This document shows positions 28,547 through 50,745 of a stretch of 64,000 nt of DNA, in pieces. The DNA is taken from positions 122,438-186,437 of the forward strand of contig CBDUKN010000002.1 in assembly GCA_965367815.1 (NCBI GenBank), read 5' to 3'. The stretch comes from an uncultured Thermoprotei archaeon (GTDB lineage Archaea; Thermoproteota; Thermoprotei; Thermofilales; B15-G2). Position numbers and translations under genes: made by a program. Under the pieces are notes generated by a model, which saw nothing but the letters and a program-made list of their open reading frames with translations, was not told the DNA's origin and searched no databases. Each line of letters begins with the position of its first letter. The first letter of the stretch is position 1.

Positions 28547-29032
28547 TTATGCTTTTTTGGCCATTAAGTAGGCATCTTCTCCATCTAAGTAATAGCCTTT
28601 AATCACTTTAACTATTTTATATCCTAGTTTTTTATACAGAGAGATAGCAGGCTTATTAGATACTCTCACTTCTAGAAAGTATTCGTCGACATTGTATTCC
28701 TTTTTAAGGTTTTCCATAGCCTTTATCATTAAGGATTTACCGATACCTTTTCTTCTAGCGTAAGGCATAACAGCTATCGACACAATGTGTCCTTTTCTCG
28801 CTACTCCTATTCCGAAATTACTTAATCCATGTTCTACTCTACACATAATGTAGCCTACTATTTCATTATGCATTTCAGCTACTAAGAACGCTTTAGGACA
28901 ATTGTAGTACTGCATCATGAAGAAGTATGGAGGATAATTTTCGGGCAAGCATTTCCTGTTAATCTCGATAACTCTTTCTAGGTCTTCAGGTCTGAACTCT
29001 CTTATTATATATTCTTGCTTATTTTCTGTCAT
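28547..29032 (-). CDS. ard1: N-terminal acetyltransferase Ard1/RimI
   Basis: LPENYP, VGYIMCRVE, GHIVSIAV...RRKGIG, LEVRVSN, YYLDGEDA. Confidence 0.94.
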   Translation of the reverse strand: MTENKQEYIIREFRPEDLERVIEINRKCLPENYPPYFFMMQYYNCPKAFLVAEMHNEIVGYIMCRVEHGLSNFGIGVARKGHIVSIAVMPYARRKGIGKSLMIKAMENLKKEYNVDEYFLEVRVSNKPAISLYKKLGYKIVKVIKGYYLDGEDAYLMAKKA

Positions 29033-29037
29033 ATTCG

Positions 29038-29641
29038 CTAAGTTACATATAGTACTCCTAGTTCTTTAAGCTTATTATACAGCTTCTTGATGGCTATTTC
29101 TACTTCCTCTTCCTTCTTTGCTCCAGTACATACACACTTTCCGCTAGAGAAAATTAGAATAACTACACGAGGATCATCCATCCTATAGATTAGTCCCGGG
29201 AATTGCTCAGGCTCATACATGGAGTTTTCAAGTAAGAATGCTGCTTTTTCTAAGTTGACTTCAGCGTGAAGATTCGCGCTTGCGACTATATTCTGTATTT
29301 TTATTTGGGGCTGGCTAACTATTTCTATACCATGTTCCTTAAGAATCTTTATTATGTTTTTAACTGCCTTGTATACCTCGTTTTCGGACTTTGCTCCAGT
29401 ACATACCATTTTTCCGCTAGAGAAAATTAGAGTCGCAGTCTTAGGCCTACTAATTCTCAGGACTAGCCCAGGGAACTCTCGGATCCCGAGGGTTTTAAGC
29501 CTCGGGATGTTCCGGATTATACTCCGCGTTAGGTACTCTCGACGCGATTAACTCTAAATCAAGCCGTTGGTCGAGAGTAACCGATGCAACTACGTTTTCT
29601 ATACGGAAACTTGGTTCTGAGAACCTAACGACTCTTCTCAT
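29038..29641 (-). CDS. tbp: TATA-binding protein, two exons: 29641-29509 and 29477-29038 (190 aa spliced)
   Basis: Exon 1 reads [44 protein letters not shown]. Exon 2 continues [31 protein letters not shown] and contains the second repeat (NIVAS...[12 protein letters not shown]...[14 protein letters not shown]). Confidence 0.95.
29478..29508 (-). other. 31-nt bulge-helix-bulge intron in tbp
   Basis: mRNA sense: CGGA-[AC^A]-UCCCGAGG-CUUAAAAC-CCUCGGGA-UCCG-[AG^A]. It has a 4-bp central helix, two 3-nt bulges and an 8-bp intron stem; removal restores the frame and Gln45. Confidence 0.88.
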
Positions 29642-29687
29642 AATATTCCCGTTCTACCTTTAAAAAGCTTAAATATATATTAATCGG

Positions 29688-30206
29688 TCACTTTCGACTC
29701 TTAGACTTCTTTTCCTCCTCTGGAGAAAAGACTATCATAATGAGTAGCAGTATTACTACTAGAGCATAGACATAAGGATATTTTTCGGCGAACAGTTTAA
29801 GTACTCCAAGATAAGGTACGTCCAACATCACTATTCCCTTTACTTGACTTATTGAGACAGGATAGTCTGGAATTAGATTAGCGTCTCCTTTAGTTACTAG
29901 CTTGTAAACATTACCTTCTCTTTCATAAACTTTTATTATTCTATGAACTGTTGGCTCGCTTCCAGCACTCCTCTTATATACAATTACTTTTCCTACTTGA
30001 AGATCAGAGGAAGATTGAACTCCTACAATTACTATCATGTCTCCAACTTGAAGTGAGGGTATCATACTCCAGCTTGAAACTACCGCTAAGGGTATTTCTG
30101 TCGACAATATGGCTTTAAATAAGTAGTTTATAGTAATGTAAGCTAGCAGTACTACAACAATAATTGTCACTAGTGTCTTTAATTTTCTATCAGATGACTT
30201 AGCCAC
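29688..30206 (-). CDS. Signal peptidase I (Sec11/S26B)
   Basis: VSSWSMIPSL..GD, VHRII, TKGDAN. Confidence 0.92.
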   Translation of the reverse strand: MAKSSDRKLKTLVTIIVVVLLAYITINYLFKAILSTEIPLAVVSSWSMIPSLQVGDMIVIVGVQSSSDLQVGKVIVYKRSAGSEPTVHRIIKVYEREGNVYKLVTKGDANLIPDYPVSISQVKGIVMLDVPYLGVLKLFAEKYPYVYALVVILLLIMIVFSPEEEKKSKSRK

Positions 30207-49659: not shown

Positions 49660-50745
49660 TTGATGGTACAACTTAAAACACCTCTTTACGAAGAACACGT
49701 TAAGCTGGGTGCGACAATCTCCAACTTTGCCGGCTGGTCTATGCCCATAGTATATGAGAGCACTATTAAGGAGCATTTGTCTGTTAGAAAAAGTGCAGGA
49801 GTATTCGATGTCTCTCACATGGCACGTATATTGGTTAAGGGACCTGACTCAGCAAATCTCTTGCAAAAACTAGTTGCAAAGAATATAGAGAAAGCTAAAG
49901 AAGGACGAATGTTAGGGCCCACGGCGTTTCTAAATGAGAAAGGAGGATTTATAGACGATATAATGGTTTATAAGCTAAGCGAGAAAGAGTTTCTTATTGT
50001 CGGAAACGCTGTAAATAGAGAAAAAGATGTTAACTGGATTAAACGCTTCGTCGAAGGACTCGAAGTAGAAATAGTGGACCTAACTTTCGAAATAGCAATG
50101 ATAGCTCTCCAAGGACCTGATAGCTCGAAGATAATGAAGAAATTGTCTTCAAGCAATATCGAAGACTTAGATTTTCTCCACTTTAAGAAAGACGCTGAAG
50201 TAGCTGGTGTAAAAAGCTTCCTTGTGAGCAGAAGCGGGTGGACAGGTGAAGATGGCTATGAAATAATGGTTCCCTCAAACTACGCTTCAAAAGTATGGTC
50301 GGCGCTAATTGAAGCTGGAGCAACTCCTTGCGGGCTCGCCGCAAGAGATTCACTTAGAATAGAAATGGGGTACTGCCTCTACGGCGAAGACATAGATGAA
50401 AATATTACTCCGCTTGAAGCGAGATACTGGGTATTCACGTTTAACAAACCTCCGTATATCGGATACAAGGCTTTGCTTAAGAAATATGAAGAAGGAGTAG
50501 ATAAAATACGTGTAGGAATAAAGCTTAAAGAAAGAACCGTACCGCGGAGAGGACATAAAGTATACATGGGAGAAACATGCGTAGGAGAAATCACTAGCGG
50601 AACTTTCTCTCCAATACTCAACTGCGGTATAGGAATAGCTTATATTGATTCCAAGCACGCGCTGATTGGAGCTCCTGTAGTAGTTGACATAAGGGGCAAG
50701 AAAAGGAAAGCTAAAATAGTAGACTTTCCCTTTATAACAAAGTAA
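49660..50745 (+). CDS. gcvT: Aminomethyltransferase (glycine cleavage T protein)
   Basis: FDVSHM, SRSGWTGEDGYE, GLAARDSLRIE. Confidence 0.96.
   Translation: MMVQLKTPLYEEHVKLGATISNFAGWSMPIVYESTIKEHLSVRKSAGVFDVSHMARILVKGPDSANLLQKLVAKNIEKAKEGRMLGPTAFLNEKGGFIDDIMVYKLSEKEFLIVGNAVNREKDVNWIKRFVEGLEVEIVDLTFEIAMIALQGPDSSKIMKKLSSSNIEDLDFLHFKKDAEVAGVKSFLVSRSGWTGEDGYEIMVPSNYASKVWSALIEAGATPCGLAARDSLRIEMGYCLYGEDIDENITPLEARYWVFTFNKPPYIGYKALLKKYEEGVDKIRVGIKLKERTVPRRGHKVYMGETCVGEITSGTFSPILNCGIGIAYIDSKHALIGAPVVVDIRGKKRKAKIVDFPFITK

Follow-up and report, generated by a model that had tools for sequence, protein, structure and literature searches.

A predicted bulge-helix-bulge intron in the coding region of an archaeal TATA-binding protein gene, conserved in Thermofilales and in neighbouring lineages

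The archaeal splicing endonuclease EndA recognizes the bulge-helix-bulge (BHB) motif and cuts after the second nucleotide of each 3-nt bulge. The strict form of this motif, designated hBHBh', has flanking helices on both sides, h being formed between the exons and h' within the intron; the Haloferax volcanii enzyme, a homodimer, has strict motif requirements. A different splicing reaction that engages a tRNA ligase is known for HAC1 and XBP1, where the mRNA of a transcription factor is cut at stem-loops by Ire1 and joined by the ligase (RtcB in animals) in a stress-regulated manner, and where the lack of splicing leads to a different or truncated product. The BHB intron of the cbf5 pre-mRNA was reportedly the subject of studies by Watanabe in 2002 and Yoshinari in 2006, and the non-canonical tRNA introns of Thermoproteales are said, in a review, to have been investigated by Sugahara in 2008 and Fujishima in 2010.

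In the passages of Yokobori 2009 (PMC2738675) that deal with cbf5, the BHB intron of its pre-mRNA is described from Desulfurococcales and Sulfolobales, and splicing is stated to have been confirmed, as of that year, for no gene except this one. A later article, where it turns to archaeal mRNA, presents cbf5 as the only additional BHB intron reported in such molecules and adds one case located in a 5' UTR (Schwarz 2020, PMC7714728). For Thermoproteales, the corresponding part of a review (PMC4090602) describes non-canonical tRNA introns with relaxed BHB motifs and notes this lineage for intron gain. Our own literature search, with subscription journals largely outside its scope, found no paper reporting an intron in tbp, in agreement with an initial reading of the locus made from the letters of the sequence (hereafter, the sequence-only reading), which had known of no BHB intron in this gene.

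Here we describe such a candidate. In our estimation, with a probability of about 0.88, a genuine BHB intron interrupts the coding region of the only tbp gene of an uncultured Thermoprotei archaeon, and the pre-mRNA is predicted to be spliced by EndA and RtcB. The window analysed is a stretch of 64,000 nucleotides of this genome (GCA_965367815.1, contig CBDUKN010000002.1, positions 122,438 to 186,437), in which tbp lies on the minus strand and consists of exon 1, a 31-nt insert and exon 2 (see the table). The list of open reading frames contains a TBP fragment of 123 aa (29038..29409, minus strand) and, in another frame, a 48-aa ORF (29495..29641, minus strand) that terminates at a TAA. In a Pfam search, the former matches TBP with an E value of 3.6e-42, whereas the latter covers positions 1-37 of the 85 positions of the TBP profile (E 2.3e-9), as expected from the earlier claim that a C-terminal fragment is separated from 44 N-terminal codons lying upstream in a different frame.

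In the minus-strand RNA, the elements follow one another in the order CGGA, ACA, UCCCGAGG, an 8-nt loop, CCUCGGGA, UCCG and AGA, and fold into a 4-bp helix, two 3-nt bulges and an 8-bp intron stem; this structure, proposed by the sequence-only reading, was confirmed to the base. The bulges lie on opposite strands with the 4-bp helix between them, as can be read from the sequence here and in all 31 orthologous introns. Cuts placed after the second base of each bulge would excise the insert and unite 133 and 440 nt in a frame that is 573 nt long and comprises 190 codons and a stop. Recomputation of this frame gave the 190-aa TBP postulated before, with two tandem repeats (PF00352) in one polypeptide, of which repeat 1 becomes complete after the predicted splicing. 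If the insert were retained, the UAA in the loop would terminate reading after 48 codons, and the 48-aa ORF ends at exactly this triplet, again as claimed. The outer exon-exon helix consists of one C-G pair (29515/29476) and the motif is therefore of the relaxed kind, a point on which both analyses agree.

Upstream of exon 1 stands the element CTTTTTAAAGG, read by eye, which we take to be a TATA-like box on the basis of the archaeal TATA consensus and its usual spacing; its position suggests a leaderless or short-leader transcript. The downstream neighbour of tbp (window 28547-29032, minus strand) encodes a GNAT acetyltransferase and begins 5 nt past the tbp stop codon. The upstream neighbour (window 29688-30206, minus strand, thus the strand of tbp) encodes a signal-peptidase-like protein with weak S24/S26 matches.

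Features of the interrupted tbp gene in the window and of the two tbp introns found in genome G057
Feature	Position	Strand	Remarks
TATA-like box CTTTTTAAAGG	29657..29667	-	about 21-26 nt upstream of the exon-1 ATG; read by eye
tbp exon 1	29509..29641	-	ATG at 29641; 44 codons and the first base, C (29509), of a split Gln codon
Central 4-bp helix, exon strand CGGA	29511..29514	-	parts of Pro and Glu codons; pairs with 29480-29483
Bulge 1 (ACA)	29508..29510	-	predicted 5' cut between 29509 and 29508, from the EndA rule and the restored frame
Candidate 31-nt intron	29478..29508	-	stem 29500-29507 with 29484-29491; loop 29492-29499; intron strand of central helix 29480-29483
Bulge 2 (AGA)	29477..29479	-	predicted 3' cut between 29478 and 29477
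tbp exon 2	29038..29477	-	remaining two bases of the split Gln codon; then 145 codons and a stop
G057 repeat-1 intron	L181:1204-1234		31 nt; helix CAGA/UCUG
G057 repeat-2 intron	L181:1508-1534		27 nt; helix CGGA/UCCG

The insert is present in DNA from several sources. Of the 22 sequencing runs listed for this sequence, none is recorded as RNA. The source genome (2.45 Mb in 37 contigs, 99.4% complete) has all three of its PF00352 matches (profile positions 2-37, 37-84 and 1-85) at one locus, which makes it the only tbp of this genome. Contigs assembled from four public DNA runs, belonging to four studies, contain the insert in every case, and none joins the exons across it. These near-identical vent populations are polymorphic in the loop, at an A-run at window position 29493, the intron being 30 nt long in three of the four assemblies and 31 nt in one; a difference of a single base among assemblies indicates that the insert tolerates a frame-changing indel. 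In another member of the genus (G001), tbp runs without interruption, exactly these 31 nt being absent, and the predicted spliced TBP aligns with the product of that gene over residues 1-190 without a gap, at 96.3% identity. The identity of the two genes at the DNA level is only 77.8%, with 104 codons differing by synonymous changes only versus 7 with non-synonymous ones. Within exon 1, these numbers are 29 and 1, respectively, which argues that this exon is translated in its own frame.

When 40 relatives were searched with the Pfam TBP profile, many proved to have their tbp in three pieces as well, the insert being placed at the same codon. A strict sequence pattern of the intron was matched in 25 of 41 genomes of the order, once in each, with no match in the reversed control, and in 27 of the 120 genomes of the class; this pattern was absent from all 341 genomes sampled from the rest of the phylum. 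When the intron strand of the central helix was left free, 31 of the 120 genomes of the class gave a match, 30 of them at tbp; the remaining one (G078) lies away from the tbp of its genome and was dismissed as a chance match. Within the order, the carriers found in this way comprise all genomes of families f2 (4/4), f3 (3/3), f4 (2/2) and f6 (2/2), 13 of 23 in f5 and one of two in f1, whereas none was found in f7 (0/1) or f8 (0/4). Outside the order, all genomes of f11 (4/4) and f12 (1/1) are carriers, and no tbp match was obtained in the 74 genomes of families f9, f10, f13, f14 and f15. In total, the set amounts to 31 introns in 30 genomes, one genome having two. The names borne by database proteins (Thermofilaceae, Infirmifilum, Thermofilum and Vulcanisaeta) locate this order in the vicinity of Thermofilum.

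The genome with two introns (G057, locus L181) belongs to another order of the class. Its BHB introns interrupt both TBP repeats at the homologous Pro-Glu/Gln-Phe codon, and their removal gives a 189-aa frame, which suggests that an intron was gained at a paralogous target site. A loose scan of public genome contigs returned mostly bacterial chance matches, and among the matches listed only two (L110 and L096) are tbp introns, both duplicates of known loci. In four incomplete metagenome-assembled genomes of another family of the class (G084, G079, G085 and G080; loci L185-L188), the tbp frame is broken between or within the repeats, in two of them at the same place; no BHB motif accompanies these breaks, and they look like single-base frameshifts, not BHB introns.

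Comparison of the 31 introns supports the proposed structure. Their lengths range from 26 to 31 nt (one of 26, three of 27, six of 28, 13 of 29, three of 30 and five of 31 nt) and fall in all three phases (6, 11 and 14 introns). The structure pairs 97.5% of alignment cells, as compared with 82.6% in shuffled alignments and 6-50% when the partners are slid by 1-3 columns; double changes occur in 10 of 14 pairs (72 cells), and the observed score was reached by none of 500 shuffles. In the intron stem h', of 8-9 bp, 96.4% of cells are paired and all nine pairs show double changes, while the single C-G pair of the outer helix h is kept in 30 of the 31 introns. The central helix is paired in every intron (100% of cells), also in three genomes that have A-U in place of a G-C pair, owing to C>U in the intron and a synonymous CCG>CCA change in the exon. 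Both bulges are of 3 nt throughout, with AAA and AUA as variants of bulge 2 in relatives. RNAalifold, given nothing but the alignment, recovered the 4-bp helix, the first 3-nt bulge and the 8-bp stem.

The reading frames behave accordingly to what splicing would demand of them. Read without splicing, all 30 loci run into a stop within 2-26 codons, in 17 cases inside the intron; read as spliced, 29 of the 30 are open, and the remaining one runs off its contig. Exon 1 of the carriers ends with CCGGAAC in 27 cases, CCAGAAC in three and CCGGGAC in one, whereas five different pairs of codons encode Pro-Glu at this site in ten intron-less genes. At the intron site, the exon sequence of carriers is thus constrained as well. 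Taken with the pairing data, the candidate is a conserved, previously unannotated intron with the features of an endonuclease substrate. Its being an old feature of the whole order, present also in cultured species, goes beyond what the sequence-only reading could have known.

A motif of this kind is, by itself, not rare. When the entire genome was scanned for a 4-bp helix with 3-nt bulges and a perfect stem of at least 7 bp, 520 matches were obtained, as compared with 364 and 331 in two shuffled genomes. Since the bare motif is common, the case rests on its position and on the comparison with other genomes, and it is beyond chance in that excision restores a gap-free TBP frame and covariation extends over 31 orthologous introns. 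The energetics of folding depend on temperature. At 37 °C, an alternative fold, in which the exon segments GGAAC and GUUCC pair, is more stable than the splicing fold (-25.7 versus -19.8 kcal/mol), and the z-score for folding of the region is -2.05. The helix-bulge-stem core has the lowest energy when folding is computed for 70 or 85 °C. Because the alternative fold prevails at 37 °C, the argument from folding leans on a high growth temperature, which we infer from the vent labels of the metagenomes and from thermophilic relatives.

The source genome encodes the proteins that the proposed reaction would need. There are two genes of the EndA family (PF01974), with ORFs of 201 aa (102 bits) and 175 aa (46 bits), and a gene for RtcB (610 bits). 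From the Pfam scores and from the catalytic residues expected of such enzymes, the two EndA paralogues would fit a catalytic and a structural subunit (alpha and beta), and the endonuclease is probably an alpha2-beta2 heterotetramer accepting relaxed motifs. ARAGORN predicted 44 tRNA genes, 19 of them with intron calls (6-61 nt, apart from a spurious call of 1575 nt), leaving 18 credible introns; with introns called in 19 of 44 tRNA genes, the splicing pathway appears to be heavily used. Two of these genes, tRNA-Ala(cgc) on contig C11 and tRNA-Ala(tgc) on contig C31, have identical 32-nt introns. A covariance model of the tbp intron (R1) scored its own site at 55.9 bits and found no second copy in the source genome. 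The idea of a multi-copy mobile intron family was rejected, as the model matches the tbp site only and no tRNA intron looked alike by eye.

A further BHB-type intron was noticed in the source genome within rps5, the gene of ribosomal protein uS5 (G000:C8:62590-62613, plus strand, locus L234). The motif has a 7-bp stem, AUA and AAG as bulges, and ACGG/CCGU as its central helix; the intron measures 24 nt, and because of it the PF00333 match contains two in-frame TAA codons. In the sister species G001, the corresponding intron has 23 nt and a different loop (C2, about 49990-50035, locus L233), and no such intron occurs in 37 other genomes of the order, in all of which the gene is uninterrupted. 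The predicted spliced uS5 aligns with each of 30 relatives in one HSP, 27 of them gap-free. Another BHB-like candidate (C5:103352-103416) was discarded, as it lies between two complete genes, for CYTH and radical SAM proteins. At five more places, the excision of a BHB-like hairpin would fuse two open frames: C4:134338-134407 (-), C6:60510-60579 (+), C2:67655-67686 (-), C7:44440-44518 (+) and C1:43762-43786 (-). The genes at these places encode a T2SSE-type ATPase, an ABC permease fragment, unknown proteins, a HepT-like protein and an antiporter fragment; the hairpins may be introns, gene borders or broken genes.

Public annotation has missed the intron. The TATA-box-binding protein entries in NCBI and UniProt are of 142 and 149 aa for Infirmifilum lucidum, 141 aa for I. 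uzonense, 149 aa for Infirmifilum sp. NZ, and 141, 148 and 153 aa for genomes labelled Thermofilum, and they are exact exon-2-frame ORFs of intron-bearing loci, several with the start inside the intron. The loci matched to annotated entries are L006/L173 (genome G022), L005/L175 (G020), L012/L179 (G005) and L010/L177 (G023). A search for entries of correctly spliced TBP has only indicative value: among the 120 proteins listed of about 8000 in the database, none matched any of 20 intron-bearing loci at more than 92%, while nine of ten intact loci found a match of at least 90%, with the reservation that the intron-less G001 reached only 79.7%.

Could these entries depict the real protein? One might assume that the product is a truncated TBP of about 123-153 aa, encoded by exon 2 only, whose translation starts within the insert or downstream of it, exon 1 being either idle or the source of a separate 48-aa peptide. 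The database entries, which are precisely ORFs of this sort, would agree with such an assumption; they are, however, the output of gene callers and not protein data, and their annotated starts vary from one entry to another, some of them falling inside the intron. Exon 1, moreover, is present and open in all 30 carriers, accounts for positions 1-37 of TBP repeat 1, is preceded by the TATA-like box and evolves under strong purifying selection in its own frame, as judged by the comparison with G001 given above (29 synonymous changes versus 1 non-synonymous). A product of exon 2 would also leave without a role the structure that compensatory changes have kept, and we consider this possibility very unlikely. 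The stable hairpin in the gap might alternatively indicate that the insert is skipped in translation, through ribosomal bypass or a hairpin-aided frameshift, instead of being removed from RNA. What has been conserved, however, is the exact geometry of an endonuclease substrate: all 31 introns have it, a change in the central helix is compensated, and rps5, an unrelated gene, displays it as well. Inspection revealed no matched take-off and landing codons, and the intron lengths occupy all three phases; skipping by the ribosome is accordingly hard to believe.

That the frame is broken as the DNA reads would be expected also of a decaying pseudogene, or of a gene that has suffered an insertion at the DNA level or an error of assembly. 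Against this stands the status of the gene as the only tbp of a 99.4%-complete genome, under purifying selection, as well as the recurrence of the insert in four independent assemblies and at the same site in 30 species; the genome, in addition, contains the element only once. We assign to this group of explanations next to no likelihood. Among the checks that the sequence-only reading had called for, those on DNA, i.e. the search for the insert in DNA, for a second intact tbp and for inserts with covarying stems at the same codon in relatives, have all turned out in favour of a BHB intron of the tbp pre-mRNA removed by the tRNA-splicing enzymes. The sole copy of the gene, the four assemblies, the 30 carriers and the presence of EndA and RtcB genes support this reading.

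For the BHB intron, the following course of events may be proposed. Transcription would start from the TATA-like promoter just upstream of exon 1, and at growth temperature the pre-mRNA, according to the computed folds, would adopt the 4-bp helix between two 3-nt bulges and the 8-bp intron stem. By analogy with the known pathway, the splicing endonuclease would cut behind the second base of each bulge, and RtcB would join the exons and probably circularise the 31-nt intron. The spliced mRNA would then direct synthesis of a normal two-repeat TBP of 190 aa.

The intron would be old, as it is common to most families of the order and to two neighbouring lineages, and several precise losses would have followed, including one in the sister species of the source genome (G001). 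The 30 rows of an unrooted TBP tree comprised 20 carriers and 10 intron-less genes; the tree did not include the four f8 genomes, G002, G009, G011, G019, G034, the genomes of f11 and f12, or two genomes in which no TBP match was obtained. On this tree, the presence of the intron requires four changes, and well-supported branches make at least three of these unavoidable: the intron-less genera of f5 form one clade, G012 is nested among carriers of its own genus, and G001 is sister to the source genome. As two lineages outside the order have an intron at this very site, the simplest assumption is that the intron was present ancestrally and was precisely lost several times; this we infer and do not read directly from the tree, as the latter is unrooted.

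If the proposed splicing takes place, tbp would be the second case after cbf5, and a much wider one, so that mRNA splicing by the tRNA machinery would not be a one-gene curiosity, and an essential transcription factor would have been made dependent on EndA and RtcB. The TBP annotation of a whole order would be corrected, type strains being now on record without the first 44 residues of this protein, and the correction would affect alignments, phylogenies and marker-gene counts. The group may also serve as a comparative system for intron gain and loss, as it includes sister species that differ in having the intron, and one gene in which two paralogous codons are interrupted. Since carriers are in culture (Infirmifilum lucidum and I. 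uzonense), the predicted splicing of tbp is directly testable.

One may go further and speculate that mRNA introns cut by EndA are recurrent and overlooked in this class, that they target core information-processing genes (tbp in 30 species, with both repeats affected in one of them, and rps5 in one genus) and serve as a checkpoint, and that new sites arise by transfer to a paralogous target sequence. We regard this broader proposal as rather unlikely. If it were true, a basal transcription factor and a ribosomal protein would be made only in the presence of active tRNA-splicing enzymes and a temperature-dependent BHB fold, and the system would be an archaeal counterpart of HAC1/XBP1 splicing.

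Among the systems introduced at the beginning, cbf5 is the closest. Both introns are short, of BHB type, and placed in the coding region of an essential information-processing gene, in hosts with a hetero-oligomeric endonuclease (which for the tbp host we deduce from its genes); both are lineage-wide, show precise secondary losses and were overlooked or misread in annotation. The two differ in the gene and in the lineage concerned, as cbf5 of Thermofilum is intron-less in the table of PMC2738675. Splicing of cbf5 has been demonstrated experimentally, whereas that of tbp is predicted. In the Haloferax volcanii case, HVO_1309, as presented in the relevant part of PMC7714728, an mRNA is likewise a substrate of the splicing endonuclease, as predicted for tbp; its intron, however, lies in the 5' UTR and leaves the reading frame uninterrupted, in contrast to the tbp intron, which lies within the frame. 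The tRNA introns of Thermoproteales, in the account given by that section of PMC4090602, would share with the tbp intron the enzymes and the size range, which for the tRNA introns of the source genome is 14-61 nt. They differ from it in the host RNA, which for tbp is an mRNA, and by inspection none of the 18 credible tRNA introns of the source genome shares the tbp stem.

The eukaryotic HAC1 and XBP1 offer a parallel. There, as predicted for tbp, a transcription-factor mRNA is processed by a non-spliceosomal endonuclease and a tRNA ligase. The endonuclease of HAC1/XBP1 is Ire1, whereas the tRNA-splicing endonuclease is proposed for tbp, and regulation by stress is a feature of the HAC1/XBP1 system.
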